Assembly (NCBI GenBank): GCA_001782825.1
Contig: MFPS01000003.1
Coordinates: 1 to 42,352 of the forward strand
Direction of reading: 5' to 3'
Length of the DNA: 42,352 nucleotides
Source: Candidatus Magasanikbacteria bacterium RIFCSPHIGHO2_01_FULL_33_34
Lineage (GTDB): Bacteria > Patescibacteriota > Patescibacteriia > Magasanikbacterales > UBA922
Below are positions 12,188-38,233 of this stretch, piece after piece. Each line of letters starts with the position of its first letter. The stretch's first letter is position 1. A program made the translations under genes and the position numbers. The notes under the pieces were generated by a model. That model had not been told where the DNA came from. It saw nothing but the letters and a program-made list of their open reading frames with translations, and searched no databases.

Positions 12188-12275
12188 TAGTAATTATCCT
12201 TTTCACTCATTCTCACTTTGATTCCGAGGCATTTGCCTGTTGTGGCAAATGAATCCGTGAAAAGGATAAGTACTA
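12188..12275 (+). repeat. Interspersed structured element, copy 1 (short form, most diverged core)
   Basis: Outer stem 12188-12206 / 12257-12275 (18 of 19 bp). Core is ctcattctcactttgattccgagg + hairpin CATTTGCC-tgttgt-GGCAAATG + aatccg. Confidence 0.85.
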
Positions 12276-12297
12276 AATTAAATATTAAGTAGTTTTT

Positions 12298-12810
12298 ATG
12301 ACAAATGATAAAAAAAAAGATGAATTAGAAAATGAAGAATTGGATAATAATGATAATAAGACAAGTGAATTAGATGAAATCAAAGCAAAGTGTGAAGAAT
12401 ATAAAGCTGGATGGCTGAGGGCGCAAGCTGATTACCAAAATTTGCAAAAAGAAGTTGAAAATAAACGAAGTGAATGGGTGAAAATGAGTGAAGTACAGAT
12501 TTTGGAGGATTTTATTCCAGTCTATGACAATTTTAAAAAAGCTTTTGGACATGATATCAAGGATGGACAGTTTGATAGCTGGAAAAAGGGAATAGAATAT
12601 ATAATGAAACAGTTTAGTGATATTTTGACAAGTTATAAGATTGAAGAGATAAAAACAGTTGGTGAAATATTTAATCCAGAATTACATGAAGCAGTTGGTG
12701 AAGAAGAAGCAGTAGATAAAGCAGATGGGGAAATATTGAAAGAAATTGATACTGGATATAAGGTTGGGGACAAAATTATAAAATGCGCAAAAGTGGTAGT
12801 CAATAAATAA
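12298..12810 (+). CDS. grpE: Nucleotide exchange factor GrpE
   Basis: GWLRAQADYQNLQKEVENKR coiled-coil signature and a C-terminal beta domain. Sits between hrcA and dnaK. Confidence 0.9.
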   Translation: MTNDKKKDELENEELDNNDNKTSELDEIKAKCEEYKAGWLRAQADYQNLQKEVENKRSEWVKMSEVQILEDFIPVYDNFKKAFGHDIKDGQFDSWKKGIEYIMKQFSDILTSYKIEEIKTVGEIFNPELHEAVGEEEAVDKADGEILKEIDTGYKVGDKIIKCAKVVVNK

Positions 12811-12826
12811 AAATAAAAAAGCTACC

Positions 12827-12846
12827 ATCCCCGCGGAGGCGGGGAT
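12827..12846 (+). terminator. GC-rich hairpin after grpE (terminator/attenuator or mRNA stabiliser; no U-tract)
   Basis: ATCCCCGC-ggag-GCGGGGAT, a perfect 8-bp stem. Confidence 0.45.
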
Positions 12847-12887
12847 CTAGGATATTAAATTAAAAATTAGAAATTAAATTAAAATAT

Positions 12888-13292
12888 ATGCATTTAATAC
12901 AATATGATCCATTTGCAGAAATGGAAAAAATGTTTAATTCTCAGTCATTTTCACCAGCATTAGATGTTTATGAAGAAAAAGATAGTGTAATAGTAGAAAC
13001 TTCACTTGCTGGAGTTGATACAAAAAATGTGGATATCAGTGTTCAAAAAAGTGTTTTGACAATTCAAGGTGAAAATAAAAAAGAACATGAAATAGATGAT
13101 AAAAATTATTATAGAAAAGAGATTCGTAGTGGTTCATTTTATAGACAAGTTGCGTTACCTGTACCAGTAAAAGAGCAGGAAATCAAAGCAGAGTTCAGTG
13201 ATGGAGTGCTTAAAATTATTTGTCCAAAAGCAGAAGCAGTAGAACCAAAGAAAATAACTATAGAGGTAATTAATAAAGATAAAAGTAGATAG
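12888..13292 (+). CDS. Small heat-shock protein, Hsp20/alpha-crystallin family
   Basis: Alpha-crystallin domain pattern (DVYEEKDSVIVETSLAGVDTKNVDISVQKSVLTIQGE...FYRQVALPVPV...AEFSDGVLKIICPK). Confidence 0.9.
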   Translation: MHLIQYDPFAEMEKMFNSQSFSPALDVYEEKDSVIVETSLAGVDTKNVDISVQKSVLTIQGENKKEHEIDDKNYYRKEIRSGSFYRQVALPVPVKEQEIKAEFSDGVLKIICPKAEAVEPKKITIEVINKDKSR

Positions 13293-13330
13293 CTATATAA
13301 CCAGTAATTAAAAATAAATAATAAAAACAT

Positions 13331-15286
13331 ATGCCAAAAATATTAGGAATTGATTTGGGAACAACAAATTCATGCATGGCAATCACAGAAGGTGGTCAGC
13401 CAAAAGTATTGGAAAATAAGGAAGGAAATAGAACTACTCCTTCTATTATTGCAATGTCAAAATCAGGTGATAGATTGGTGGGCCAATTGGCCAAAAGACA
13501 ATCAGTCACCAATCCACAAAATACGCTCTATTCAATCAAGCGTTTGATTGGTCGTAGATTTGAGGACAAAGAAGTGCAAGATGTTGCCAAGCATATGCCA
13601 TACAAGATTGTGGCTGATGGTGAGAAAATAAAAGTAAAAATGGGTGACAAAGATTATACTGCGCCAGAGATTTCAGCGATGGTATTACAAAAACTAAAAG
13701 CCGATGCAGAAGAAAAAACTGGTGAAAAAATCACTCAAGCAGTCATTACAGTACCAGCATATTTTGATGATTCACAAAGACAAGCGACCAAAAATGCTGG
13801 TGAAATTGCTGGGCTTGAGGTACTCCGAATCATCAATGAACCGACTGCGGCTGCTTTTGCCTATGGTTTTGACAAAAAAGATGATCAACAAATTGTTGTA
13901 TATGATTTGGGTGGTGGTACTTTTGATGTATCAGTATTGGATATCAGTCATGATACTGCAGAGGGTCTTTCAACCGTAGAAGTAAAATCAACCAATGGAG
14001 ATACTCATCTGGGAGGAGATGACTTTGATAACAAAGTCATCCAATGGATTTTGGAAGAGTTTAAAAAGATTGAAGGGATTGATTTGTCCAAAGATCCACT
14101 TTCATTACAACGGGTAAAAGACGCTGCTGAGAAGGTCAAAATAGAGCTTTCTAGCACTCCTGAGAGTGAAATCAATGAACCATTCATTACTTCAACTGCT
14201 GATGGTCCAAAACATTTGAATATAAAATTGTCTCGCGCTAAATTGGAAGAATTGGTAATGGATTTGGTTGAAAAAACTATGACTCCAGTCAAAAAAGCGA
14301 TTGAAGACGCTGGTATGAAGAAAGAAGATATTGATGAAGTGATATTGGTCGGCGGTATGACTCGTATGCCATTGGTACAAAAGAAAGTTGAAGAATTTTT
14401 TGGTAAAAAACCAAATATTACTGTGAATCCAGATGAGGTAGTAGCAGTCGGAGCCGCTATACAAGCTGGACAGCTTCAAGGGGACTTGGGTAAAGAAATT
14501 CTTTTACTTGATGTTACACCGCTTTCACTTGGTATTGAAACTATGGGTTCAGTTTCAACTAAGTTGATTGAACGCAATACTACAATCCCGACTAGCAAGA
14601 CTCAAGTTTTCTCAACCGCGGCTGACAATCAACCAAGTGTAGAGATTCATGTCTTGCAAGGTGAACGCCAAATGGCATCTGACAACAAAACTTTGGGTAG
14701 ATTTATGTTGGACGGTATTCCACCAGCTCCACGCGGAGTGCCACAAGTAGAAGTAAAATTTGATATTGATGCCAATGGAATTCTCAATGTTTCTGCAAAG
14801 GACAAAGGTACTGGCAAAGAACAATCAATTCGCATTGAAGCTTCAAGTGGATTGTCTGATGAGGAGATTGAAAAGATGAAAAAAGATGCAGAATTACATG
14901 CCGAAGAAGATAAAAAGAAACGAGATATGATTGAAATCAAAAATACTGCTGACACAATGGTGTATACTACTGAAAAAATGATGAAAGATGTAGAAGAAAA
15001 GAAAATTGCCATAACCGATGAAGAAAAGAAAAAGGTGGAAGATGCACTCGCAAAAGTAAAAGAATTGAAAGAAAAAGATGATATGGAAGCGCTCAAAAAA
15101 GCATCTGAAGAATTGACTGAATCAGCTCAAGCAGTAGGGATGAAGATGTATCAGCAAGAATCAGAAAAACAAAAAGCCGAAGGTGGTGAACAAGTTGATC
15201 CACAAAAAGCAGCAGAAGATGAATTGAACAAAGAAAAAGAAGGTGAGGCGGTTGATGGTGAAGTGGTTGAGGATGATAAGAAATAA
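13331..15286 (+). CDS. dnaK: Chaperone DnaK (Hsp70)
   Basis: [33 protein letters not shown] and other Hsp70 signatures over the full length. Confidence 0.98.
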
Positions 15287-15300
15287 GACTTAAGACATAA

Positions 15301-15324
15301 GTACCCCGCCTGATGGTGGGGTAC
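15301..15324 (+). terminator. GC-rich hairpin after dnaK (no U-tract)
   Basis: GTACCCCGCC-tgat-GGTGGGGTAC, a 10-bp stem with one G.U pair. The stem sequence resembles the hairpin after grpE. Confidence 0.45.
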
Positions 15325-15367
15325 TCGTATACTTTATACTTAATACAAAATACTTTATATTACACAC

Positions 15368-16453
15368 ATGTCCAAAGACTACTACAAAACACTCGGCGTT
15401 GAAAAAAGTGCTTCGGCGGATGAGCTCAAAAAAGCTTTTCGTAAACTTGCTCATAAGTATCATCCCGATAAACAGGGAGGGGACGAAGCCAAGTTCAAGG
15501 AAGTAAACGAAGCTTATCAAGTGCTGGGTAATGAACAAAAGCGTGCGCAATATGATCAATATGGGGCTGATTTTGAGTCTCAGGGTGGTTTTGGTGGTGG
15601 GGCTGGTTGGGAGGATTTTATGCGGGCGAGTCGTGGACAAGGTGGAGCGCAGTTTGATTTTGGTGATATAGATTTGGGTGATTTGTTTGGTGGAATGTTT
15701 GGTGGTGGTGGACGCAGACAGCGACAGCGTCGAGGCAATGATATCCAAGTTGATGTGCAGATTGAATTCAAGGAGGCAGTTTTTGGGGTGGAAAAAGAAA
15801 TTCGTTTGAATAAAAATAACAATTGTGATGTCTGTGCTGGTAGTGGAGCTGAGCCTGGTTCAAATGTAAAAAAATGCGCAGAATGCAATGGTCATGGTCA
15901 AGTCAAACAAGTCCAGCGTACTATTCTAGGAGCAATGCAGACAGTAGCGACCTGTCCATCTTGCGCAGGTGCTGGGGAAAAAGCCGAAAAAAGTTGCAAG
16001 CATTGTGGAGGTGATGGGCGAGTACGAAGTGAGTCAGTCTACAAAGTAAAAATTCCTGCCGGTATCCATGATGAAGGTACTATAAAACTGGCTGGGAAAG
16101 GTGAGAGCGCTGGAGTTGGTGGGCAATCAGGGGATTTGTATGTAGTAGTCCATATAAAGGCTGACAAAATATTTGAACGTGATGGTTATGATATTTATAC
16201 AGATTTGCATATTAATTATCCGCAAGCAGTGTTGGGTGATAAAGTAGAAATTGATACGCTTGATGGTAAAAAAAGATTGGTAATACCCGAAGGTGTGGAT
16301 TCGCATCAACAAATTCGTTTGAAAGGCTTGGGTGTGCCAAATCTGTCTGGTAGTGGTAGGGGCAGTCACTATGTACGAGTGATAGTAGATATCCCTAAAA
16401 AAATCAATCGCAATGCAAAGAAACTTATACAAGATTTGATAGAAGAATTATAA
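15368..16453 (+). CDS. dnaJ: Co-chaperone DnaJ (type I: J domain, G/F region, CxxCxGxG zinc fingers)
   Basis: DYYKTLGV...HPD J domain, a GGFGGG region, and the motifs CDVCAGSG, CAECNGHG, CPSCAGAG and CKHCGGDG. Confidence 0.97.
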   Translation: MSKDYYKTLGVEKSASADELKKAFRKLAHKYHPDKQGGDEAKFKEVNEAYQVLGNEQKRAQYDQYGADFESQGGFGGGAGWEDFMRASRGQGGAQFDFGDIDLGDLFGGMFGGGGRRQRQRRGNDIQVDVQIEFKEAVFGVEKEIRLNKNNNCDVCAGSGAEPGSNVKKCAECNGHGQVKQVQRTILGAMQTVATCPSCAGAGEKAEKSCKHCGGDGRVRSESVYKVKIPAGIHDEGTIKLAGKGESAGVGGQSGDLYVVVHIKADKIFERDGYDIYTDLHINYPQAVLGDKVEIDTLDGKKRLVIPEGVDSHQQIRLKGLGVPNLSGSGRGSHYVRVIVDIPKKINRNAKKLIQDLIEEL

Positions 16454-16497
16454 AAATTAAAAAATCATTTATTAATTAATAAATGATTTTTTAATTT
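16454..16497 (+). terminator. AT-rich palindromic terminator after dnaJ
   Basis: AAAAATCATTTATT-aatt-AATAAATGATTTTT, perfect at 16460-16491 and extendable, followed by T residues. Confidence 0.6.
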
Positions 16498-16517
16498 AGT
16501 ATTTTTTATCTGTAAGA

Positions 16518-16546
16518 TTGACAAAAGTCAATATCTACGGTACATT
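16518..16546 (+). promoter_or_regulatory. Promoter of small orphan gene A (TTGACA-N17-TACATT)
   Basis: TTGACA at 16518-16523, 17-nt spacer, TACATT at 16541-16546. AAAGGAG SD at about 16558-16564, with the ATG at 16571. Confidence 0.65.
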
Positions 16547-16570
16547 ATAAATTATAAAAAGGAGTACACA

Positions 16571-16774
16571 ATGAGAGATGAACAATTGGATAGAGAAGTT
16601 GATTTTCTTCGGAAAATCGAAAATGTCCTTATTAGACTAGGTAAATGTAAAAATAGCACACAAGCTGCGGTAATGATTTACGATAGAATTATGCAATGGA
16701 CAAATGGTTGTCCTGAAATTGCACGCAAGTGCTTTGAAGCTTTTTTAAGGGCTAATGCTAATGTATCTGTTTAG
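16571..16774 (+). CDS. Small orphan protein A (67 aa), no recognisable family
   Basis: Has its own consensus promoter, a canonical SD 6 nt before the ATG, and its own terminator. Host-like AT-rich codons. Confidence 0.6.
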   Translation: MRDEQLDREVDFLRKIENVLIRLGKCKNSTQAAVMIYDRIMQWTNGCPEIARKCFEAFLRANANVSV

Positions 16775-16790
16775 TTCTTCTCTTGACCCA

Positions 16791-16825
16791 CCACCCAATG
16801 CAAAGCATCGGGTGGTTTTGATTTT
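16791..16825 (+). terminator. Intrinsic terminator of orphan gene A
   Basis: CCACCCAATGC-aaa-GCATCGGGTGG (one mismatch) followed by TTTTGATTTT. Confidence 0.7.
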
Positions 16826-16828
16826 ATA

Positions 16829-16857
16829 TTGACAAAATGATAAAAATAACCTACATT
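16829..16857 (+). promoter_or_regulatory. Promoter of small orphan gene B (TTGACA-N17-TACATT)
   Basis: TTGACA at 16829-16834, 17-nt spacer, TACATT at 16852-16857. AAAGGAG at 16871-16877, with the ATG at 16886. Confidence 0.65.
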
Positions 16858-16885
16858 AAATTTAAGAAACAAAGGAGAAATAGTC

Positions 16886-17107
16886 ATGCATGATTATGGT
16901 CTAACTGATGAGCATATTAGATGTTTGATGTTGGCATCACAATCAGATAGGCTCTGGAGAGAAATGGCAATTATTGTAGCTGTTGAAGGAAACCTAAAAG
17001 ATAGGGAATCCGCAAGAGTAGTTACTAATAATTTTACTACCGGACTTGGTCCAAAAGGGCGAAAAGCCCGTTGGTATTTTTTGAGAAGCCAGTATCCTTT
17101 TGATTGA
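16886..17107 (+). CDS. Small orphan protein B (73 aa), no recognisable family
   Basis: Own promoter, canonical SD 8 nt upstream of the ATG, followed by a perfect 14-bp hairpin. Confidence 0.6.
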   Translation: MHDYGLTDEHIRCLMLASQSDRLWREMAIIVAVEGNLKDRESARVVTNNFTTGLGPKGRKARWYFLRSQYPFD

Positions 17108-17139
17108 TTGGGTGATTAGTGAATATCATCCAAAACATA

Positions 17140-17172
17140 TTGACCTGCATGATAGTAAATCATGCAGGTCAA
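17140..17172. terminator. Bidirectional hairpin terminator between orphan gene B (+) and rnhA (-)
   Basis: TTGACCTGCATGAT-agtaa-ATCATGCAGGTCAA, a perfect 14-bp stem between convergent genes. Confidence 0.7.
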
Positions 17173-17196
17173 TACAAAACATCAGATTGATAATGT

Positions 17197-17598
17197 CTAA
17201 GCATGTTTATCAAGAATTTTATTTACTTCCGCATCAGCTTCTTTATTATTTTCGCGCCGTGTATGGCGTATTTTTATTTTTTTGAATTTTTGACTAGCAT
17301 TCCAGGCTTTGGTAAAAAGTTTTTGGAGTGTAGGTTCTTTTACTTTCCAATTTCCGTTCAATTGTTCCACTATTAATTTACTATCTAATATGCAGTCTAC
17401 TTCGTCAGCGTCTAGTTCAAAGGCTTTTTCTAAGCCAGAAATCATGGCAGAGTATTCTGCATAATTGTTGGTTTGTTTGCCTAGATATTCGCCGTATGAA
17501 GCGACTATTTCACCTTTTTCGTTTTTTATTACTACTCCAGTTGCAGCTGGTCCTGGATTACCACGGGCACCGCCGTCAGTATGAATTGTTAATTTCAT
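17197..17598 (-). CDS. rnhA: Ribonuclease H (type 1 family)
   Basis: HTDGGARGNPGPAATGVVI...NNYAEYSAMISGLEKA...HTRRENNKEAD carries the RNase H D-E-D-D motifs. Confidence 0.85.
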   Translation of the reverse strand: MKLTIHTDGGARGNPGPAATGVVIKNEKGEIVASYGEYLGKQTNNYAEYSAMISGLEKAFELDADEVDCILDSKLIVEQLNGNWKVKEPTLQKLFTKAWNASQKFKKIKIRHTRRENNKEADAEVNKILDKHA

Positions 17599-17614
17599 AA
17601 GTATTGTTTTTATT

Positions 17615-17732
17615 TACATAATATAATTTATCTTTTACTCCCTGCCTGCCGGCAGGCAGGATTCTCGCTGTGGCTCCGAGGCAGTTGTCTGTTGTGACAA
17701 CTGAATCCGTTCAAGATAAATTATATTATGTA
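17615..17732 (+). repeat. Interspersed structured element, copy 2 (long form with the 20-nt palindrome)
   Basis: Perfect 20-bp outer stem 17615-17634 / 17713-17732. Palindrome CCTGCCTGCCGGCAGGCAGG at 17641-17660. Core is attctcgctgtggctccgagg + hairpin CAGTTGTC-tgttgt-GACAACTG + aatccg. Confidence 0.9.
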
Positions 17733-17736
17733 ATAT

Positions 17737-19500: not shown

Positions 19501-19517
19501 ATAAGTAAAGGTGTGTT

Positions 19518-19934: not shown

Positions 19935-19937
19935 TGT

Positions 19938-20036: not shown

Positions 20037-20100
20037 ATTTAATAATGTTAATATATTTATAAGTTATAATGGTTTTTTTATATTTTCAATAATGAACATA

Positions 20101-20196
20101 TTAATTCCAATTATTTGTTTTTACTCATTCTCGCTTCGGCTCCGAGGGTGATGCCTGTTGGGGCATCAAATCCGTAAAAACAAATAAACAAATTAA
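20101..20196 (+). repeat. Interspersed structured element, copy 3 (short form)
   Basis: Outer stem 20101-20124 / 20174-20196 (14 bp + internal loop + 6 bp). Core is ctcattctcgcttcggctccgagg + hairpin TGATGCC-tgttgg-GGCATCA + aatccg. Flanks out to about 20232 are homologous to copy 5. Confidence 0.9.
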
Positions 20197-20232
20197 TACT
20201 TAATTATAAATAATATTATTAATTCTTACAAT

Positions 20233-22020
20233 TTATCTTTTCAAAACTGCCAAATAAGCTTCGGTTGGGATATCTACTTTGCCTTTGCCGTGGGCCATCA
20301 TTTTTTTCTTGCCCTTCTTTTGTTTTTCAAGTACTTTGCGTTTGCGAGTAACGTCGCCTCCATACAATCCTGCAGTTACATCTTTTCGCATAGCTGACAA
20401 TCTTTCGCCGGCAATTACTTTGCCACCAATTGCAGCTTGGATTTTGATTACGAATTGTTGTTTTGGTAGCGTGTCTTTGAGTGAATTGACGATTTGTTTG
20501 CCTATTTTGAAGGCGTCTTCTCTCCAGACCAATGTTGCGAGTGCTTCCACTGGCTCTTCGGCAATCAAAATATCAAGTTTGACTATATCTGTAGTTTCGT
20601 AATTTTTGAATTCATAACTCAAAGATGCATAACCACTGGTTACAGTTTTAAGTTTATCATAAAAATCAGTAATAAGCGAAGACAAGGGCATCTCGTAATG
20701 GAGTAGGGCACGCTGTTCTGTACCACTGCTTAAATATTCTGTATTTTTGTATCTGCCTTTTCTCTCAGCAATCAAACCCATAACATTACCAATATATGCT
20801 TGAGGAGTAATAATATCTACATTCATCCAAGGTTCTTCAACTTTGAGAATATTTTGGACTTCTGGCAAGTCTTGAGGGCTTTTTACTATAATAGTATCGC
20901 CTTTGGTTTTGAAAACATTGTAAGCTACACTAGGAACTGTAGCAATAATTTCTAAATCAAATTCACGACGTAAGCGTTCTTGAAAGATATCCAGATGCAA
21001 CATACCCAAAAAACCGCAACGGAAACCAAACCCTAGCGCTTGGGAATGTTCTGGTTCGTAAGTGAGTGATGAATCACTGAGTTTCAGTCTATCAACTGCA
21101 TCTCGTAGAGAATTATATTCGTCGCCTTCTTTGGGGAAAATACCGGCGAAAACCATTGGCTTTACTTCTTTGTAGCCTTCAAGTGGTTCTTTTGCGGGAG
21201 AGTTTGCAATGGTAATAGTGTCACCAACTTTTACATTACCCAATTCTTTGAGACCAGTAACAATATACCCAATTTGTCCATTGTCTAAATTGTTGTCGGC
21301 TACAAGAGTTGGTGAGTAATGGCCAATTTCTAAAACTTCAGCATCAGCCAATGTTCTCATAAATTTTATTTTTTGTTTTTTTTCAATTTGGCCATCAATT
21401 ATTCTGACTGAGGCTACTACTCCACGATAATCATCATAAAAAGAGTCAAAAACAAGGGCGCGAGCTGGTTTATTCGCATTGTCAGTTGGTGGGGGAACAC
21501 GTTTGATTACTTCCTTTAGAAGATTTTCAACACCTTCTCCAGTTTTGCCAGAACAGGTGAGTATTTCTTCGCGTTTGCAACCAGTCAATTTTATTATTTC
21601 TTCACTGGTTTTTTCTATATCAGCATTTGGCAAATCTATTTTGTTGAGCACAGGTATGATTGTGAGGTCTTGTTCTATAGCAAGGTAAAGGTTGCCAATA
21701 GTTTGTGCTTGAACGCCTTGGGTGGCATCAACCAAAAGGATTGCTCCTTCAACGGCTGCTAGAGATCTGGATACTTCATAAGTAAAGTCAACATGTCCTG
21801 GAGTATCTATCAAATTTAGAATATTGTCTTTGTATAGCATGCGGACAGGTTGCAATTTTATGGTGATGCCACGTTCTTGTTCCAATTCCATTTGGTCTAA
21901 CATTTGATCATGCATTTTTCGTCCCTCTACTGTATTGGTCAATTCTAAAAAACGGTCAGCCAATGTAGACTTACCATGATCAATGTGGGCAATTATACAA
22001 AAATTTCTAATATTGCTCAT
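20233..22020 (-). CDS. lepA: Translation elongation factor 4 (LepA)
   Basis: NFCIIAHIDHGKST, DTPGHVDF and NKID GTPase motifs plus the LepA C-terminal domain. I place the start at MSNIRNF (22020) because a promoter occupies 22040-22068, inside the longer ORF call. Confidence 0.95.
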   Translation of the reverse strand: MSNIRNFCIIAHIDHGKSTLADRFLELTNTVEGRKMHDQMLDQMELEQERGITIKLQPVRMLYKDNILNLIDTPGHVDFTYEVSRSLAAVEGAILLVDATQGVQAQTIGNLYLAIEQDLTIIPVLNKIDLPNADIEKTSEEIIKLTGCKREEILTCSGKTGEGVENLLKEVIKRVPPPTDNANKPARALVFDSFYDDYRGVVASVRIIDGQIEKKQKIKFMRTLADAEVLEIGHYSPTLVADNNLDNGQIGYIVTGLKELGNVKVGDTITIANSPAKEPLEGYKEVKPMVFAGIFPKEGDEYNSLRDAVDRLKLSDSSLTYEPEHSQALGFGFRCGFLGMLHLDIFQERLRREFDLEIIATVPSVAYNVFKTKGDTIIVKSPQDLPEVQNILKVEEPWMNVDIITPQAYIGNVMGLIAERKGRYKNTEYLSSGTEQRALLHYEMPLSSLITDFYDKLKTVTSGYASLSYEFKNYETTDIVKLDILIAEEPVEALATLVWREDAFKIGKQIVNSLKDTLPKQQFVIKIQAAIGGKVIAGERLSAMRKDVTAGLYGGDVTRKRKVLEKQKKGKKKMMAHGKGKVDIPTEAYLAVLKR

Positions 22021-26177: not shown

Positions 26178-26214
26178 TTTTTATTTTTGTAAATAAAAAA
26201 AGTATATTAAAAAT

Positions 26215-26335
26215 ATGGGAGAGGGGTGAACCAAACCTAAAACCGCATACGCTGTGTTATGCACCATGAGTCGTAGTGTAGCGGATGCGAGAAGTGCAGC
26301 GTGGCGCGACTAAAAGGAGCGAGTTCAAAAAATAT
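26215..26335. other. Unassigned block of moderately high G+C, not coding (candidate small RNA or island edge)
   Basis: gggagaggggtgaacc...gtggcgcgactaaaaggagcgagttc stands out from AT-rich flanks. Only ORFs of 15 codons or fewer. No match to any RNA family I can recognise. Confidence 0.3.
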
Positions 26336-26524
26336 TTTTCAATTAACTGTATTTTGGTAGGCTTTTTCTCAATTATATCAATAAATTTGTTTTTTATCTG
26401 GGATGGGGATTAAGGGATGAATACACACCACCCAAAACATCTTATTTTAAGGTAAACAACAGGAATTTTGGTTAAAAAATGGCTTATTTTAGTAAAATTA
26501 ATCCCTGTTTTTTTGGGCTTGGTA

Positions 26525-26553
26525 TTGACAAGAGTCTTTTTTTATGCTATATT
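26525..26553 (+). promoter_or_regulatory. Consensus sigma70 promoter of the GC-rich cassette (TTGACA-N17-TATATT)
   Basis: TTGACA at 26525-26530, a 17-nt spacer, TATATT at 26548-26553. Same hexamers and spacing as the hrcA promoter. Confidence 0.7.
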
Positions 26554-26559
26554 ACTATG

Positions 26560-26740
26560 TCAATTTGGTAGATTTCGTTCTGCCTTCGCAGTAGTGAAAC
26601 CTCTAAATTGCAAGTGTTCTTTAAAAAGAGAAAGGCAAGCAAATGCGTGGGCATAATTCTGGTTATTTCTAACGAAGTAGCCAAGATCATGCCCACACAT
26701 CGTTTGGCAGCAGAAATCCACTTCAGAGGAGAAAAACAAC
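26560..26740 (+). promoter_or_regulatory. Long (~180 nt) structured 5' leader with a Shine-Dalgarno site
   Basis: Closing helix GATTTC-gtt-CTGCC (26571-26584) with GGCAG-ca-GAAATC (26706-26718). Internal hairpins CTGC-cttc-GCAG (26580-26591) and GTGGGCAT...ATGCCCAC (26646-26653 / 26688-26695). AGGAG at 26727-26731 lies 9 nt before the ATG. Confidence 0.5.
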
Positions 26741-27751
26741 ATGGAATTTAAGGCAACCAACCATCTTCGCGCCGAAGCTGACGAGGGCTGGATCGCCCTG
26801 GTTATGGGCAACTGGTTCCACAACAGCAACCGGTGCGACCTGCCCACCAGAACGCTCCGCATCTACTTCGCGCACTTCGACAACTACGAGCTGCGTGAGG
26901 GTACGACCGATCAGGGACATGTCGTTAACCTCTCCGGCTTCGACGGATCGAGGTATTGTGAGCCGCAGGGCTGGAATCGCTTCAGCAACGCGTACTACAT
27001 CGGCTACCAGGTCCGCGACCTGCAGTCCTTCGTCTGGCGCGCTGAGTACCGCAAGCACCGCTTCGAGATCCGCGCCCAGCGCATCGACAACAACCGCTGG
27101 ACCGTCGAGTACTGCAGCAACTGCGAGAACAGCGAGCACCGCTTCGAGATGGTGGAGTACAGGGATCTGCTGAAGGACTGGTTCCAGATGATCGACCCCG
27201 ACACCTTCGAGATCACGACGGCGACCACGACCATCGCTCTCGCCTCGGCTGCTGGCTCGGCTTCCCAGGTCGTCTGCAAAGGTGCCTCACGGGGCAACCA
27301 CACGCAGATGTACATGAAGCTCATCGCGTTCGCCGAGACCCAAGGCATCACCGACGCGAACAAGTGCTTCGGCGCCAGCGCCGTTCACGGTGAGCCCAAG
27401 CGTGCGGAGCTCCGAAACTGGTGGAAGATGATGTTGGAGCTCCACCGTGAGGAGGACCAGCCGACGTTCCGCGAGGGTTTCGACACCGTGCACGCCTGGG
27501 AGCTGTGCCACATCGACATACTTTTCGCCTGCTACGGCGATCAGCTTCCGAGATACATCCGTCACGGCAGTAACACAGTTCCTCAGGACCAGCTCGTCGA
27601 AGAACTGGTCATCATCGGACGCGCCGTACACAAGGTCCTGGGTCACCAGCCGACCTTCTCCTTCCGCGAGTATCTGTTCGGGCACTTCGAGAAGGATGTA
27701 CAACAGATGTTGTACAAGGTCAGCGAGAAGCTCGGTTGGACGATGGTGTAG
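26741..27751 (+). CDS. Orphan 336-aa protein with alien composition (~60% G+C, G/C-ending codons). Two domains joined by a T/A/S linker; function unknown.
   Basis: A 336-codon open frame is not expected by chance even at this G+C. 41 of the first 50 codons end in G or C, against 8 of the first 30 in dnaK. SD and promoter lie upstream, and a hairpin, ribozyme and terminator downstream. I recognise no family. Confidence 0.75.
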   Translation: MEFKATNHLRAEADEGWIALVMGNWFHNSNRCDLPTRTLRIYFAHFDNYELREGTTDQGHVVNLSGFDGSRYCEPQGWNRFSNAYYIGYQVRDLQSFVWRAEYRKHRFEIRAQRIDNNRWTVEYCSNCENSEHRFEMVEYRDLLKDWFQMIDPDTFEITTATTTIALASAAGSASQVVCKGASRGNHTQMYMKLIAFAETQGITDANKCFGASAVHGEPKRAELRNWWKMMLELHREEDQPTFREGFDTVHAWELCHIDILFACYGDQLPRYIRHGSNTVPQDQLVEELVIIGRAVHKVLGHQPTFSFREYLFGHFEKDVQQMLYKVSEKLGWTMV

Positions 27752-27782
27752 TACCAACTGCCTTTCTTTTTAACATTTAACT

Positions 27783-27815
27783 GGGGCCAGCTCGATGTAC
27801 AATCAAGCTGGCTCC
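27783..27815 (+). other. 3'-UTR stem-loop between the stop codon and the hammerhead
   Basis: GGGGCCAGCT (27783-27792) pairs with AGCTGGCTCC (27806-27815): 10 bp including one G.U, with a 13-nt loop. Confidence 0.6.
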
Positions 27816-27816
27816 A

Positions 27817-27882
27817 AAGGATCTTCCATTGAGAATGGAACTGATGAGTCCAAATGATTGTAATGAACAGGACGAAATTCTT
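27817..27882 (+). ncRNA. Type III hammerhead self-cleaving ribozyme motif
   Basis: AAGGAUC|UUCCAUU-gag-AAUGGAA-CUGAUGA-GUCC-(18-nt loop)-GGAC-GAA-AUUCUU. The full invariant core is present (C3-A9 at 27841-27847, G12A13A14 at 27874-27876, A15.1-U16.1, C17 at 27823, G10.1-C11.1). Stems are I = 7 bp, II = 4 bp, III = 6 bp with one G.U. Confidence 0.8.
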
Positions 27883-27893
27883 ATTAAATAACT

Positions 27894-27915
27894 CCGCCAA
27901 CACAGCGGTTTTTTT
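27894..27915 (+). terminator. Intrinsic terminator of the GC-rich cassette (short stem, strong U-tract)
   Basis: CCGC-caacaca-GCGG followed by seven T residues (27909-27915). Confidence 0.5.
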
Positions 27916-28083
27916 ATTCAAAAAGCGTTTCTGGAGTGTAGCGAAGGAAACATCATATTTCTACTAATCAAAAAAATAAAAAATAAATTTATCCCTTATT
28001 GAAAAAGCTTACCAAAATTTTGCTATTAAAAGAAAAATATTTTTTGAATTGCGTATAACTGTGGATAAAGTGCCTAAAAATGA

Positions 28084-28136
28084 TTGTTTCATAATTAAAA
28101 GTGGTGTATAATGGAAATAGGTGGGGAAAAGTGGGG
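28084..28136 (+). promoter_or_regulatory. mraZ promoter with phased GTGGNG direct repeats (candidate MraZ operator)
   Basis: TTGTTT (28084-28089), 17-nt spacer, TATAAT (28107-28112). GTGGTG at 28101, TGGAA at 28112, GTGGGG at 28121 and GTGGGG at 28131 have a 10-nt period. Confidence 0.55.
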
Positions 28137-28201
28137 AAAATAAAGTTTTCTACTTTATGCTTGTCGGTAGAAATTAAGTAAAAAATAACTATAACCTTGT
28201 T

Positions 28202-28633: not shown

Positions 28634-28640
28634 ATAGCTT

Positions 28641-29519: not shown

Positions 29520-29521
29520 AT

Positions 29522-29857: not shown

Positions 29858-29990
29858 AATAATGATGAGTAATGTAAATTAATTTATAAACTATTATTGC
29901 AAGATGAGCAATTCTCCTTAGTAGGAGTTTTTTATTTTTACTAATATATGGTAAAATATTATTGTTGGTAATTGTTATATTATAATAAGT

Positions 29991-30188
29991 GAATAGTGTG
30001 AATTAACTTATAAATCATTCTTTAATAGAATATTAATAATTAGAGATTATCATTCACTCCCTGCCTGCCGGCAGGCAGGATTCTCGCGGTGGCTCCGAGG
30101 TGTTTGCCTGTTGTGGCAAACAAATCCGCTCATAATAATCTCTAATCATTAATTCTATTTTATATTTATAAATTAATTCACACTATTC
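29991..30188 (+). repeat. Interspersed structured element, copy 4 (long form; longest outer stem, ~60 nt per arm, imperfect)
   Basis: GAATAGTGTGAATTAA... (29991-) pairs with ...TTAATTCACACTATTC (-30188). Palindrome at 30060-30079. Core is attctcgcggtggctccgagg + hairpin TGTTTGCC-tgttgt-GGCAAACA + aatccg. Confidence 0.9.
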
Positions 30189-30202
30189 ATTAATAAATTA
30201 TT

Positions 30203-30553: not shown

Positions 30554-30556
30554 GTT

Positions 30557-33325: not shown

Positions 33326-33326
33326 T

Positions 33327-34403
33327 ATGTTAGCAGAAATAATGGCAGTTTATTTATTATTAGTATTAGTTTTTGCGATGAATCCATTGCGTAGAATGTT
33401 TTTACCATTACAAATGGATAAAAATATTTATTTTTTTGCAGGAAAACGCATAGAATATTTTGATTTTTTGAAGGGAGTGGCGATAATTGCGGTAATTATA
33501 GTTCATATTTCTTATCTCTCATTGATTTTATTTAAAGGTGAAGGCTCACTTTTTTTGTTTGAATTAAATAATTTGACTAGATTTGCTATACCATTTTTTT
33601 TGATTATTTCTGGTATATTGTCTACATTGAAATATAATCAAAAGATGGATTTAAAGAAGTATTATTTTGGAAAGTTTTTTAAATTGTATTTGCCTTTTGC
33701 ATTTTTTACAATACTAGTGGTATTTTTGCATGACAAAGATATTAGTAATTTGCCAAGTTATTTAGTCAATGGTTTGGCTTTGACACCTTATTATTTTGTA
33801 ATTTTAATATTACAATTATATATTTTATTTCCTTTATTAAGGCATTTGAAAGATAGCAGATTTTTTTTATTTTTTTCTTTTGTGGTATCACTAATATTTT
33901 TTACTTTTAATGACCTCAATACTATAAATGGAGTTATTTTGTTTCCAAAATTTTTATTCTTTTTCGTATATGGGATGTATTATAGGAATAATTTTATGAA
34001 TTATAAGGTAAATAAATCACATATAAAATATTGGTATTTTATTGTATTTATGTATATATTTGTTACTTTAATATTACCGGATCATTACTTCAATTTTCGA
34101 CCATTTTTTGGAATTGCTATTTTTAATCTGTTTTTTATATATAAAAAACAGATTATTGCTCAATTTGATGATTTGTATAATTTTTTAATTAATGTTGGTA
34201 AAAATAGTATTTGGATTTATTTTACACACTTTAGTTTGCTGGCGGGTTTATTTTATTTGTTAGGTTTGTTTTTGAATAATTTGTATGTTACAGTTTTGAT
34301 AGTTTTTGTTGTATCTTTACCACTTTCATTTTTAATAGGTAGTATATTTTCAAAAATTTATTCTAATATTTTAAATACATTATATGGAGCAAAAAACAAA
34401 TAA
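33327..34403 (+). CDS. Acyltransferase family 3 integral membrane protein
   Basis: RIEYFDFLKGVAIIAVIIVH start motif and about 10 TM helices, typical of the acyltransferase_3 family. Confidence 0.6.
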   Translation: MLAEIMAVYLLLVLVFAMNPLRRMFLPLQMDKNIYFFAGKRIEYFDFLKGVAIIAVIIVHISYLSLILFKGEGSLFLFELNNLTRFAIPFFLIISGILSTLKYNQKMDLKKYYFGKFFKLYLPFAFFTILVVFLHDKDISNLPSYLVNGLALTPYYFVILILQLYILFPLLRHLKDSRFFLFFSFVVSLIFFTFNDLNTINGVILFPKFLFFFVYGMYYRNNFMNYKVNKSHIKYWYFIVFMYIFVTLILPDHYFNFRPFFGIAIFNLFFIYKKQIIAQFDDLYNFLINVGKNSIWIYFTHFSLLAGLFYLLGLFLNNLYVTVLIVFVVSLPLSFLIGSIFSKIYSNILNTLYGAKNK

Positions 34404-34848
34404 TAAATTAATGATTACTTTTGCAATTATTTTTGTAATTAGTTTTGTAGTTATTAGGTTGATGCAATTTTATTGGAGTGATGCAAATATTGTTTTGGAT
34501 GGCAATAGGTTGAATGTATTGATTGCTAGAAATGCAGAACAACAATACAAAGGACTAAGTGATCGGGATGATCTTGGAGAATATGACGGTATGATATTTG
34601 TCTATCCCAATCCTTTTATTATTGGTGTAGTTATGAGGGATATGAGATTTCCTATTGATGTTGTGTGGTTTTATGATAATAAAGTAGTGGATATTGCACC
34701 GAATTTGCAATTAGAGCCAGGTGTTTCCAATGAAGATTTGAGGGTATATTTTCCACGTGATAAGGCTAATATGTTTTTGGAGTTGGAAGCTGGTTGGGTT
34801 GAGGAGCATCAATTGAAAATAGGGGATACACTTGAGTTTATAGAATGA
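34384..34848 (+). CDS. DUF192-family protein (membrane-anchored)
   Basis: GLSDRDDLGEYDGMIFVY...MRDMRFPIDVVWF...VVDI pattern characteristic of DUF192. N-terminal TM helix. Confidence 0.6.
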   Translation: MEQKTNNKLMITFAIIFVISFVVIRLMQFYWSDANIVLDGNRLNVLIARNAEQQYKGLSDRDDLGEYDGMIFVYPNPFIIGVVMRDMRFPIDVVWFYDNKVVDIAPNLQLEPGVSNEDLRVYFPRDKANMFLELEAGWVEEHQLKIGDTLEFIE

Positions 34849-34884
34849 TATTTTTGGCTGTGAGTAGCGTTTTTATATCTACAC

Positions 34885-34913
34885 TTGACTAATAATAGTA
34901 TTTTTGATATAAT
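34885..34913 (+). promoter_or_regulatory. rplU promoter (TTGACT-N17-TATAAT)
   Basis: TTGACT at 34885-34890, 17-nt spacer, TATAAT at 34908-34913. Confidence 0.65.
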
Positions 34914-34966
34914 ATTTGCGTTTCCTACATAGGTGGGATTATTACATATATTAAGATTATAAATTT

Positions 34967-35287
34967 ATGTTTGCAGTAATTGAAACAGGCGGAAAACAAT
35001 ATTTGGTAAAGACTGGGCAAGTTTTGAAAGTTGAAAAATTAGAAGCAGAACCTGGTAAACCATTTGTATTTGATAAGGTACTTTTACTTGCTAATGACGA
35101 TGGTACTGATGTTGAAATTGGTACTCCATATTTAGAAGGTGTAAGTATTTCAGCAGATATTGAAGAGCAAGGTAGAAGTAGTAAAATACGTGTAGTCAAA
35201 TACAAGAGAAAAGTTCGTTATAAAAGAGTGATTGGTCATCGTCAACATTTTACAAAAATAAAAGTAACTGACAAAAAGGCTAAATAA
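34967..35287 (+). CDS. rplU: 50S ribosomal protein L21
   Basis: MFAVIETGGKQYLVKTGQVLKVEKL...GHRQHFTKIKV is the canonical L21 sequence. Confidence 0.95.
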   Translation: MFAVIETGGKQYLVKTGQVLKVEKLEAEPGKPFVFDKVLLLANDDGTDVEIGTPYLEGVSISADIEEQGRSSKIRVVKYKRKVRYKRVIGHRQHFTKIKVTDKKAK

Positions 35288-35289
35288 TT

Positions 35290-35317
35290 AAAAAATTCCG
35301 ATAATTCGGAATTTTTT
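35290..35317. terminator. Bidirectional terminator hairpin between rplU (+) and recR (-)
   Basis: AAAAAATTCCGA-taat-TCGGAATTTTTT, a 12-bp stem with A and T runs on either side. Confidence 0.7.
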
Positions 35318-35918
35318 AATTGTCTTCAGTTCTATTTTTAATGGCGCCTTCTAGAGTGATTTCGTCAGCATATTGTAAATCACTTCCTACTGGTAGACCA
35401 CGAGCTAGACGGGTAATTTTTAGATTTGGGTTGAATATATTTATTTTTTGTCTCAAAAACATTATGGTTGTTTCTCCGGTCAAATCAGGATTAAAAGCCA
35501 GAATGATTTCATATATTTCATTATTTTTGATTCTATTTAGTAATTCATTTATTTTTAAGTCTTTTATTTGTCCCTTTTTGTCGGCTTTAATGACGCCACG
35601 TAATACGTGGTATAGTCCATTGTATTTACCGATTTTTTCAATTATTTGAATATTTTGGGAATCACTCACTACACAAATAGTGTGTTGGTCACGTTTTGTA
35701 TTAGAACATATTTCGCATGGACTTTTGTCAGAAAAGTCCCAACACATAGGACAGCTTTTTATATTATCACTAAGATTTGTTAGTACTTTTGATAGTTCAT
35801 TAACTTCTTTTTTGCCAGATTTTAATAAATGAAAAACATACCTTTCAGCAGTGCGTTGCCCAACTGATGGCAATTTACCAAAGGCTTTGATTAGGTTTTG
35901 GATTGGGATTGGGTACAT
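35316..35918 (-). CDS. recR: Recombination protein RecR
   Basis: LIKAFGKLPSVGQRTAERYVFHLL HhH motif, C4 zinc finger (CPMCWDF...CEIC) and a Toprim segment. Confidence 0.93.
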   Translation of the reverse strand: MYPIPIQNLIKAFGKLPSVGQRTAERYVFHLLKSGKKEVNELSKVLTNLSDNIKSCPMCWDFSDKSPCEICSNTKRDQHTICVVSDSQNIQIIEKIGKYNGLYHVLRGVIKADKKGQIKDLKINELLNRIKNNEIYEIILAFNPDLTGETTIMFLRQKINIFNPNLKITRLARGLPVGSDLQYADEITLEGAIKNRTEDN

Positions 35919-36019
35919 ATAATAGTTCCTAGTTCGGAGCCAATAGCCAATATTTAATTATATTTAGTTAATTTATATTGTTTTAATCAAATTATTGGCT
36001 ATGAACTACTGGCTATGAA

Positions 36020-36322
36020 CTAACTAAGTCCTGGAATGTTTGGTAATCCTCCCATTTCTTTCATTTTCATAGCCATTATTCGTTGCATTTTTTTCATAGC
36101 ATCGGCATGGGCATCTTTGATAGCATCTTGAAGCTTTTGTTTTTTGTCTGGATTGAGTAAATCATTATCAATTGCCAAGCCAGTCATTTTTAAATTGCCG
36201 TCCATTGTCATAACAACTTTGTCGCCCGCTGATTTTACAGTAACTGATTCTTTGCTTAGATTGTCCTGCATTTCTTTGGCTTGTGATCGTAGGTCTCTGA
36301 ATTGTTTTAGTTTATTTAGCAT
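36020..36322 (-). CDS. ybaB: Nucleoid-associated protein YbaB/EbfC
   Basis: 100 aa. MLNKLKQF...AQEMQDNL...VTVKSAGDKVVMTMDGNLKMTGLAID pattern, and classic ybaB-recR adjacency. Confidence 0.85.
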   Translation of the reverse strand: MLNKLKQFRDLRSQAKEMQDNLSKESVTVKSAGDKVVMTMDGNLKMTGLAIDNDLLNPDKKQKLQDAIKDAHADAMKKMQRIMAMKMKEMGGLPNIPGLS

Positions 36323-36370
36323 ATTATTTTATATGTAATATATAATAGTATTATTTATTCATGATTGTAT

Positions 36371-36485
36371 TAGTTCCAATTATTTATCTTTACTTCCTGC
36401 CTGCCGGCAGGCAGGATTCTCGCTTTGGCTCTGAGGGTGACGCTTGTTGAAGCGTCAAATCCGTAAAAATAAATAATTTGAACTA
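36371..36485 (+). repeat. Interspersed structured element, copy 5 (long form)
   Basis: Outer stem 36371-36393 / 36463-36485 (21 of 23 bp). Palindrome at 36396-36415. Core is attctcgctttggctctgagg + hairpin TGACGCT-tgttga-AGCGTCA + aatccg. Flanks are homologous to copy 3 out to about 36530. Confidence 0.9.
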
Positions 36486-36539
36486 GTACTTAATTATAAA
36501 TAATATTTTTAATTTTTACATTTTATATTTATAAATTAT

Positions 36540-37988
36540 TTAGAATTTTGGTATATGGGGTGTATTTGGAATATTTTGTGGTGGTGAAATTGCTGAAGAT
36601 GGTGGAGCCATATTTGTATATTCATTGTCAAGATTTTTGTAGCTGGCTTGAGTAGCGTCAAAAAATAATTTTACCATACCAGTAGGACCATTTCTATGCT
36701 TAGCTATATGTATTTCACCGATATTGCGTTCATCAGGTGGTATGTCTTCTTCACGATAATTTCTATCAGCTGATTTTCTATAAATAAACATAACTACATC
36801 AGCATCCTGTTCAATACTACCAGAATCTCGCAAATGTGACAACTTTGGAATAGCTGGTTTTGTTTGTTCAACAGCACGAGAAAGTTGTGAGAGGGCTAAT
36901 ACTGGTACATTGAGTTCACGAGCAATGCCTTTGAGATTTCTACTCATTTCAGCTACTTCTTGAACTCTATTCTCACTACCGCCTTTTTTGTGTGATTCCA
37001 TCAATTGCAAGTAGTCAATAATAAGTAATCCGAGTCCATGTTCAGCTTTTAGTCTACGGGCTTTTGTTCTGATTTGCATTACATTGTTTCCTGGTGTGTC
37101 GTCAATATAAATTGGAGCTTCTGACAAAATACCCATAGCGCGACCGATTCTAGGGAAATCATCGCTATCTGGCTTGTCGGACAAGTTTCCTGTACGCATT
37201 TTCCACAAATCAACCCCTGCTTCTGAACAGAGCAATCTATCTACCAATTGCTCTTTACTCATTTCTAGTGAGAATAATCCTACTGGTACTTTGTTTTTGA
37301 CGGCAGCATGCCTAGCAATATCTAGAGCAAAAGATGTTTTACCAACAGATGGACGAGCGGCTAGAATGACGAGATCGGATTTTTGTAATCCAGCTAATAA
37401 ATTATCCAGTTTTGTAAAACCAGTGGCGATTCCGCGTAATTTACCTTTGTCTTTGTGGAGTTCGTCCAATCTTTCAAAAGCATCATTCAATACAGTCCTT
37501 ATATCCGTAAAGGTTTTTTTGAGGTGTGTTTGGGTAACTCCATATAGTTCTTGTTGAGCTTCATCCAATAGGCTATCTATTTCATCTTCTTCATTGAAAG
37601 AAAGAGCGGTAATTTTGCTAGAAGCGGAAAGTAATTTGCGAAGAGTTGATTTTTTGCGTACAATTTGAGCGTAATGTTTGATATGAGAAGAGGTTGGTAC
37701 TGCGGTTGATAATCCTGATAAATAACTTCTTCCGCCTATATTATCTAATTTATTTTTTTCATTGAGTCTTGCGCTCAATGTCAAAAGATCAATCGGTTCA
37801 TTTTTGTTATAAAGTTCTACCATTGTTTCATAAATATCGCCATGAGCATTTTTATAAAAATCATCAGCTGAAATTTCATCGGCAATCTTGATCATGGCGT
37901 CTTTATCAATCAAAATAGCACCCAAAAGCGAGCGTTCAGCCTCTATATTTTGAGGAGGTATTTTTTCTTTATCTATTATATCCATCAT
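36540..37988 (-). CDS. dnaB: Replicative DNA helicase DnaB
   Basis: PPQNIEAERSLLGAIL N-terminal domain, Walker A (ARPSVGKTSFAL), Walker B (LLIIDYLQLM) and the RecA-like C-terminal domain. Proline-rich C-terminal extension. Confidence 0.95.
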   Translation of the reverse strand: MMDIIDKEKIPPQNIEAERSLLGAILIDKDAMIKIADEISADDFYKNAHGDIYETMVELYNKNEPIDLLTLSARLNEKNKLDNIGGRSYLSGLSTAVPTSSHIKHYAQIVRKKSTLRKLLSASSKITALSFNEEDEIDSLLDEAQQELYGVTQTHLKKTFTDIRTVLNDAFERLDELHKDKGKLRGIATGFTKLDNLLAGLQKSDLVILAARPSVGKTSFALDIARHAAVKNKVPVGLFSLEMSKEQLVDRLLCSEAGVDLWKMRTGNLSDKPDSDDFPRIGRAMGILSEAPIYIDDTPGNNVMQIRTKARRLKAEHGLGLLIIDYLQLMESHKKGGSENRVQEVAEMSRNLKGIARELNVPVLALSQLSRAVEQTKPAIPKLSHLRDSGSIEQDADVVMFIYRKSADRNYREEDIPPDERNIGEIHIAKHRNGPTGMVKLFFDATQASYKNLDNEYTNMAPPSSAISPPQNIPNTPHIPKF

Positions 37989-38135
37989 AAAAATATGATT
38001 ATATGATCTTTACTTGTTCTAATAGTATAGGATTTGTTCGTATAGTTCAACTATTATTTGGGGGTAGACTGTGGAGGGTATGTGGACGGCTTGAATTGCG
38101 AGGTGATTTACCATATAATTAGACTAATAAATGAT

Positions 38136-38233
38136 TAATGATTAAAAATTGTTATTCGCTCATTCTCGCTGTGGCTCCGAGGTGATTGCCTGTTGTGGCA
38201 ATCAAATCCGCTCATAACAATTTTTAATCATTA
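38136..38233 (+). repeat. Interspersed structured element, copy 6 (short form)
   Basis: Perfect 20-bp outer stem 38136-38155 / 38214-38233. Core is ctcattctcgctgtggctccgagg + hairpin TGATTGCC-tgttgt-GGCAATCA + aatccg. Confidence 0.9.

Follow-up and report, generated by a model that had tools for sequence, protein, structure and literature searches.

The small genomes of the candidate phyla radiation (CPR), or Patescibacteria, are generally regarded as poor in mobile DNA. Correia elements duplicate the dinucleotide TA, and integrase-like DDE transposases (Tn7, Mu, and some IS3/IS481) typically combine TG...CA (TGT...ACA) ends with a 5-bp duplication. IS200/IS605 and REP elements, to our knowledge, produce no target duplication, have no terminal inverted repeats, and insert beside a fixed target of 4–5 nucleotides (nt). 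The closest described systems are the bacterial MITEs (miniature inverted-repeat transposable elements) and palindromic repeats such as Correia, RUP, BOX, SPRITE, ERIC, and Nezha, which are 100–200 bp long, non-coding, multi-copy, and intergenic (PMC3049150). The leading strand carries 61–63 % of the pneumococcal BOX, RUP, and SPRITE elements (PMC3049150). For TnsE-directed Tn7, insertion in a single orientation is linked to lagging-strand synthesis (PMC4678854), and family-specific, replication-linked orientation biases are known for several insertion-sequence families (PMC3971601). We analyzed a stretch of 42,352 nt from Candidatus Magasanikbacteria bacterium RIFCSPHIGHO2_01_FULL_33_34 (contig MFPS01000003.1, positions 1 to 42,352; hereafter, the window), in which an initial annotation had described six copies of an interspersed structured element. 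This element is a real, well-structured repeat that constitutes a new family of MITEs and not a demonstrated RNA. The six copies are probably the centers of a family of MITE-like foldback elements, mobilized in trans and inserted in a replication-coupled manner. In the searchable literature, no description of a MITE family was found for CPR/Patescibacteria.

Mobility is indicated by the ends of the element and by its insertion sites. The whole element is a foldback of 110–200 bp (144–189 bp between the ends in the measured elements), holds no open reading frame (ORF), and is inserted in AT-rich intergenic spacers. Its terminal inverted repeats read 5'-TTGTAAGAAT..AGCGTTGTTTATA... / ...TATAAACAACGCT..ATTCTTACAA-3'. 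A 26-nt end motif, TGTAAGAATAAAGAGCGTTGTTTATA, is inverted at both ends in most relatives, giving the layout 5'-(N)TGTAAGAATAAAGAGCGTTGTTTATA... / ...TATAAACAACGCT..ATTCTTACA(N)-3', and, in window copy 3, occurs at the right end; canonical ends are seen in window copies 3 and 5 (copies are numbered below) and in relatives with better-preserved elements. The element family has both TGT...ACA termini and a 5-bp flanking duplication, which matches at 5/5 positions in 7 of 12 elements and at 4/5 in another 3, compared to 0.9 % and 6.5 %, respectively, in controls with shifted offsets. The duplicated 5-mers vary (TTTAG, ATAAT, GTAAG, ATAAC, and TTTAT), and copy 10, directly beyond the window, is flanked by TTTAT on both sides.

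Two near-identical strains provide a filled and an empty site. At the first locus (L050), a 144-bp element and a second ATAAT lie between hsp20 and dnaK; at the second (L024), the same site is uninterrupted and carries one ATAAT. The element has moved recently. Inverted-repeat ends, 5-bp duplications, and this filled/empty polymorphism together indicate a non-autonomous mobile element, and several features by which MITEs are recognized were found: a size under approximately 300 bp, no coding capacity, inverted ends, a duplication of fixed length, and dispersed copies that vary between strains. The free-standing structured RNA proposed by the initial annotation therefore gives way to the centers of mobile foldback elements. 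The same annotation had conceded that its reading would fail if the repeat belonged to a known MITE or REP family with a cognate transposase; the repeat is largely of that kind, although it represents no known family and searches of the window and of related DNA revealed no cognate transposase.

In the window, the core pattern TTCTCGCNNNGGCTCCGAGG (at most 3 mismatches) has 6 matches, all on the + strand, with 0.01 expected by chance. The copies to which these cores belong are as follows.

12177..12286, + strand: copy 1, short form and imperfect palindrome, in the hrcA/grpE spacer; core 12205-12257, inner hairpin P4 12230-12251.
17614..17733, + strand: copy 2, in the spacer between an RNase H gene and recJ, antisense to both; core 17637-17709, P2 palindrome 17641-17660.
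20057..20231, + strand: copy 3, full-length (175 bp), antisense to the two genes that flank its spacer, a 138-aa ORF and lepA; core 20123-20174.
29990..30189, + strand: copy 4, long-armed, with a small + strand ORF on either side; core 30056-30128, P2 30060-30079.
36328..36526, + strand: copy 5 including its duplication, in the ybaB/dnaB spacer, antisense to both; core 36392-36463, P2 36396-36415.
38136..38233, + strand: copy 6, short form, in the spacer from which dnaB and a glycosyltransferase gene diverge; core 38158-38210.

Two covariance models (R1 and R2) recover the same 6 copies and no others in the window. Separation is clear, as true copies score at least 68 bits and noise, which includes the reverse strand of the true copies, at most 23 bits. 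The count given earlier was confirmed in this way, and the covariance model that had been proposed at that stage, once built from the copies, retrieves exactly these six in the window. All cores fall within the earlier intervals, which were correctly located but too short: copy 3 spans 20057-20231, copy 4 spans 29990-30189, and copy 5 spans 36333-36521.

Around each copy, the arms form a long AT-rich inverted repeat, and these are the longest inverted repeats of the window. Both strands fold far beyond shuffled sequence (z -5.6 to -9.6), and folding as single-stranded DNA (ssDNA) from end to end gave -51 kcal/mol (z -11.5) for the element at a related locus, L047, and -33.5 kcal/mol (z -7.3) for copy 10. 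The arms of copy 1 (12177-12212 / 12251-12286) are 89 % complementary, with an R2 score of 90.7 bits; the hrcA-grpE gap is merely 4–6 nt in relatives, so the whole copy is an insertion. Copy 2 has perfect 21-bp arms (17614-17634 / 17713-17733) and model scores of 111 (R1) and 75.8 (R2) bits. In copy 3, whose arms are common to copies 5, 8, and 10, the right end reads ...ATTCTTACAA, the right-end inverted repeat is recognized at 20205-20230, and the flanking 5-mers TATAT (20052-20056) and TTTAT (20232-20236) match at 4/5 positions. Copy 4 (R1 103.5 bits) has a perfect 17-bp terminal inverted repeat, TGAATAGTGTGAATTAA, at 29990-30006 / 30173-30189. The full-length element of copy 5 (36333-36521, 189 bp) has outer arms at 36326-36358 / 36496-36528 and is flanked by a 5-bp duplication, TTTAT, at 36328-36332 and 36522-36526. 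Copy 6 has arms at 38136-38164 / 38205-38233 and an R2 score of 87.6 bits.

The core is a GC-rich Y shape with the order RCTC / ATT / small hairpin CTCG..CGAG / variable hairpin / AAT / CCGY. Its outer stem terminates in R-C/G-Y, followed by a 2x2 pyrimidine internal loop (TC/CC), three invariant pairs (ATT/AAT), and a tight three-way junction that is formed with the small hairpin CTCG...CGAG and the variable hairpin P4. Covariation was assessed on 22 distinct family sequences from the window, its genome neighborhood, and relatives. Changes on both sides of a pair were found for 8/8 pairs of P4 and 8/12 pairs of the outer stem, and 95.2 % of cells are paired, compared to 78 % in shuffles and 37–47 % with the partners slid; none of the shuffles or slid registers approached the observed value. 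The compensatory stem changes that first drew attention to the repeat are thus real, and the P4 stems had been quoted correctly, with perfect complementarity in 6/6 window copies. The hairpin loop TGTTGN, described as conserved, is conserved inside this genome only; relatives show AGCT, AACG, GCG, or ACC.

The optional palindrome that had also been described, CCTGCCTGCCGGCAGGCAGG, was found in window copies 2, 4, and 5. It is a 20-nt GC palindrome, identical in each case and always at the same point of the internal loop, that is also carried by copies 7 and 8; it is absent from every copy of other genomes and is present or absent within both arm subfamilies. This pattern suggests gene conversion between cores or a second, site-specific mini-insertion.

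The core without P4 is better conserved than the arms in three subfamilies, with identities of 98 vs 79 %, 94 vs 70–85 %, and 98 vs 73–77 %. P4 evolves at about the speed of the arms with pairing always kept, and the arms likewise stay paired despite sequence change (copies 3 vs 10). The early statement that the family is not a decaying repeat therefore holds for the non-hairpin core but not for the arms and ends of the window copies, which are decaying; in copy 8, directly beyond the window, the core is decaying too.

Orientation is strict within the family. All 10 copies of this genome are on the + strand, and GC skew is positive across the entire window. Eleven further independent insertions, spread over 10 contigs, all show a positive skew with respect to the element. 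In total, the core + strand is the G-rich strand in 21/21 independent insertions, regardless of the direction of neighboring genes, and once the contribution of gene strand is separated, the remaining component of the skew is +0.10 to +0.26 at every locus with both gene orientations. Mere co-orientation with genes does not account for this, because both flanking genes run antisense to the element in copies 2, 3, and 5 and in the L047 copy. The usual rule is that G exceeds C on the leading strand. If this rule also holds in CPR bacteria, the core + strand would be the leading-strand sequence, i.e. the lagging-strand template. Five young, near-identical copies of subfamily A already share one orientation, which suggests that the bias arises at insertion.

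Compensatory changes alone do not distinguish between RNA and DNA. DNA foldbacks give an identical signal, and a test of covariation in such repeats therefore needs a palindrome-aware null. Of the mismatches in the arms, 108 are transversions, 26 are G·T on the + strand, and 31 are G·T on the - strand; this ratio is the one expected by chance and shows no strand preference. Wobbles make up only 3 of about 440 cells in P1 and P4. The informative pairs of the core conflict, as pair 13-89 is A·C (+ strand) in four copies and pair 43-55 is G·U (+ strand) in eight. The lack of a G·U excess and the replication-linked orientation favor a constraint on a DNA foldback, and hence a DNA-level hairpin, over RNA. 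The initial annotation had left the choice between a structured RNA and a DNA hairpin; its second option is the one favored, since orientation tracks replication and G·U pairs are not enriched. Template-switch repair of quasi-palindromes is an established mechanism, and such repair may help to keep the DNA foldback paired.

A functional structured RNA in the core, whether a gene for a small RNA or a novel self-cleaving ribozyme, that is carried as cargo of the MITE or was exapted after insertion would nevertheless be compatible with the MITE nature of the element, since selection on a fold also yields compensatory changes. Invariant junction and loop nucleotides beside freely covarying stems are typical of small ribozymes and riboswitch cores, and the core keeps a high GC content within a genome of 31 % GC, with slower evolution than in the arms. 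In the small hairpin, one pair on the + strand is either G-C (13) or G·U (8), and a hammerhead ribozyme elsewhere in the window means that such RNAs do occur in this genome. However, Rfam 15 at the gathering threshold gave no match on any copy in the window or in six related loci, and at E values up to 10 (copies 4 and 6) only chance-level matches to AT-rich or miRNA-hairpin models were obtained. The comparison with Rfam that had been called for was thus negative, in agreement with the view that the repeat belongs to no known family. Neither strand is enriched in wobbles, the strand signals of pairs 13-89 and 43-55 conflict, and orientation follows replication instead of the direction of flanking genes. 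Promoter-like sites are no commoner than in shuffled sequence, no copy received a terminator call, and no T-tract follows the structure. The right-end repeat does contain a conserved, inward-pointing motif resembling TTGTAA-17 nt-TATAAT, but it would drive transcription of the - strand, head-on to replication. On balance, we consider an RNA function of the core unlikely. The broader proposition, that the core is a functional module of either kind (an ssDNA structure on the lagging-strand template, or a small structured or self-cleaving RNA riding on the MITE), is tentative and also on the unlikely side. As an ssDNA module, the core could possibly direct one-way insertion, or it might have been co-opted by the minimal-genome host, e.g. 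for priming or fork processing.

Two further explanations dispense with a MITE. Copies might be immobile cis-regulatory hairpins of the host, such as terminators, attenuators, or mRNA-stabilizing stem-loops, that arose or were kept in place. Such a role would fit the intergenic position of all copies, many of which begin only a few bases from a stop codon, and their very stable hairpins (z -5.6 to -9.6). It does not fit the insertion polymorphism with target duplication, the non-orthologous sites among relatives, or the position of three copies antisense to the surrounding operon and of one in a divergent promoter region; moreover, no structure is followed by a T-tract or was called a terminator. 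A terminator identity was dropped after promoter and terminator scans, as no copy was called one. This explanation is very unlikely as an account of the family, although copies may have a secondary effect on neighboring transcripts. The other explanation is an ssDNA transposon derivative (REP/BIME with RAYT, or IS200/IS605) that is moved by a Y1 (HUH) transposase recognizing its hairpins on the lagging-strand template. Hairpins as the conserved feature, DNA-like stem mismatches, and a strict replication orientation as in IS200/IS605-type elements (PMC3971601, PMC5027513) would all be expected of it. Variable 5-bp direct repeats flank the inverted-repeat ends, however, and an empty site with a single 5-mer exists; the window proteins also include no Y1 transposase in Pfam. 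This origin is extremely improbable. REP/BIME units are imperfect palindromes of 20–40 nt with a conserved 5' tetranucleotide and were rejected because the elements are 110–200 bp long with inverted ends and 5-bp duplications, and an IS200/IS605 derivative was rejected because the flanking 5-mers are direct repeats that differ between copies.

The preferred reading of a replication-coupled MITE leads to the following model. A retroviral-integrase-like DDE transposase would mobilize the element in trans, and insertion would be coupled to the replication fork. The left arm is consistently about 10 nt longer than the right arm in all subfamilies, which makes the ends distinguishable, as oriented insertion requires. 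Such asymmetric arms would let the machinery insert the element in one orientation, so that the core + strand always becomes the leading (G-rich) strand. The core may serve as a cis-acting site, either protein-bound or read in the form of a folded single strand of DNA, and core and foldback would be retained since lineages that lose them stop propagating. The compensatory changes would then reflect a constraint on DNA hairpin formation rather than on RNA.

Several observations count against this model. Pfam searches of the window ORFs gave no transposase domain, and the end motif was found only on small elements, with no longer element bearing the same ends in the window and approximately 0.6 Mb of related DNA. 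The integrase-like DDE assignment is inferred from end and duplication features known from other transposons. Window copies 1, 2, 4, and 6 have no recognizable canonical ends or duplications, and their ends are either diverged or different. A classical MITE has no reason to keep its center more conserved than its arms, nor does it need complementarity of the arms beyond the transposase-binding sites. An additional function, at the level of RNA or of the host, may exist. Finally, the term leading strand depends on the GC-skew rule, which is experimentally unverified for CPR bacteria.

The distribution of the family was explored with pattern scans, models, and protein anchors. Within 10 kb to the right of the window, the same genome has 4 additional copies, all on the + strand, which amounts to 10 copies in about 62 kb, or approximately 1 per 6 kb; copies are absent from the first 12 kb of the window and from the 10 kb to its left. 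A first, stricter pattern gave 0 matches in metagenome contigs. A relaxed pattern scan of these contigs gave 48 loci, which filtering with the model separated into 30 chance matches and 18 real ones. The latter represent 11 distinct copies on related contigs of 40–46 % GC. Exact-pattern scans of viral contigs gave 2 chance matches and then 0, and an exact-pattern scan of genome contigs gave 10 matches, all of them chance and in GC-rich, unrelated organisms. BLAST searches of the full element against plasmids and phages returned nothing relevant. Protein-anchored look-ups found 1 copy in a relative with a RecJ that is 76 % identical and 0 in two others. In a related genome (L014), a copy is located upstream of murJ; at the related loci L013 and L018, no copy was found. 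Sites differ among relatives, as L050 has copies at grpE/hsp20 and hsp20/dnaK, where the window has none, and the window has a copy at hrcA/grpE. Judged from these searches, the family does not extend beyond a clade of Candidatus Magasanikbacteria (CPR).

The related loci also showed other features. In L014, the spacer upstream of murJ (3300-3650, - strand) holds several other GC-rich, hairpin-like segments beside the element copy. The RecJ proteins P0004 (L014 10001-12223) and P0005 (L018 10001-12229) are approximately 150 aa longer and have a PD-(D/E)XK nuclease domain (PF13366); a separate gene near the latter in L018 encodes the same domain.

The window itself is a chromosomal segment of approximately 31 % GC, and the closest relatives of its RecJ and HrcA carry a Magasanikbacteria annotation. 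Its housekeeping genes include yidC, hrcA-grpE-hsp20-dnaK-dnaJ, an RNase H gene, recJ, lepA, murJ, and corA; a beta-CASP nuclease gene, mraZ-rsmH, clpB, recR, ybaB, and dnaB are also present. ARAGORN found no tRNA or tmRNA. At 91-9969, a series of big + strand ORFs (337–797 aa) either lacked Pfam matches or matched only Ig-like (Big_6, Big_13) and dockerin domains, and these probably encode surface proteins. Two spacers contain other inverted repeats. In the grpE-hsp20 spacer, a small GC hairpin at 12827-12846, ATCCCCGC-GGAG-GCGGGGAT, was called terminator-like on the - strand and has a stem similar to the P4 stems (CCCCGCC...GGCGGGG) that the element shows in other genomes. In the recR-ybaB spacer (35923-36022), there is an imperfect 33-nt inverted repeat with internal direct repeats (GGCTATGAACTA x2) that is unrelated to the element family.

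Between the beta-CASP gene and mraZ, a 2-kb island (26180-28200) has 48 % GC in this 31 % GC genome; in L013, the same gap is only about 210 nt. The island has a near-consensus promoter (TTGACA-17-TATATT, about 26526-26554) and a GC-rich orphan ORF of 336 aa (26741-27751), for which Pfam and PHROG gave no match and PADLOC gave only a chance-level one. It is followed by a type III hammerhead ribozyme at 27816-27883 with all core nucleotides, which scores 34 bits at E 4.7e-6 (gathering score 48.5), and then by a terminator-like hairpin. An independent ENA assembly of this genome breaks at the edge of the island. The island (26.2–28.2 kb) was ruled out as the parent transposon of the family, since it has no matching ends and no transposase domain.

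Three aspects make the family interesting: it occurs in CPR bacteria, its orientation is strictly linked to replication, and its core is a conserved three-way junction. An orientation of 21/21 makes it a clean natural case for studies of replication-coupled, oriented transposition, and the element could be used as a marker of replication direction and for strain typing in uncultured genomes. For annotation, it accounts for long intergenic hairpins and for assembly breaks. It is also a caution that compensatory stem changes in a palindromic repeat do not prove RNA. If the core does have an activity of its own, it would be a new structured nucleic-acid motif.

Among known systems, integron attC sites resemble the element in being variable, imperfect palindromes whose folded single strand matters and that lie between genes in one orientation. 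The ends of attC are conserved (RYYYAAC...GTTRRRY) and its center is variable, whereas the element has a conserved center and the ends TTGTAAGAAT / ATTCTTACAA; the genes between its copies are housekeeping genes (dnaK, recJ, lepA, dnaB) and not cassettes, and an integrase is not present in the window. An attC identity was rejected on these ends, the conserved center, and the housekeeping neighbors. Small self-cleaving ribozymes and other Rfam RNAs share an invariant junction, covarying stems of variable length, an optional stem, and repeat-associated copies. Unlike hammerhead, twister, pistol, hatchet, and HDV-like ribozymes, the element matches no model, its junction is nearly without unpaired nucleotides, and it shows no strand-specific wobble. 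The IS200/IS605 elements, their palindrome-associated derivatives, and REP/RAYT are similarly centered on hairpins and oriented with replication (PMC3971601, PMC5027513). For these systems, as for attC, the element ends and duplications decided the rejection.

Similarities in the mode of working are found with Tn7 and Tn7-like elements (TnsE) and with the integrase-like DDE group (Mu, Tn552, IS3, and IS481), which share the 5-bp duplication and the 5'-TGT...ACA-3' ends. Like the element, Tn7 has dissimilar left and right ends. It also inserts in a single orientation tied to lagging-strand synthesis (PMC4678854). Unlike for Tn7, no tns or transposase genes were seen and the element is only approximately 175 bp long, so the likeness is one of working mode and not of membership. 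With the bacterial MITEs, the family further shares an AT-rich composition outside the center, strong base pairing, inverted ends, duplications, and strain-variable sites. Its sequence is unrelated to Correia (Neisseria), RUP, BOX, and SPRITE (pneumococcus), ERIC, and Nezha, its duplication is 5 bp where that of Correia is TA, its orientation is uniform in 21/21 insertions where BOX, RUP, and SPRITE show a partial bias, and it is restricted to CPR bacteria. In contrast to known MITEs, the element has at its center a three-way junction, GC-rich and conserved, whose evolution is slower than that of the arms.

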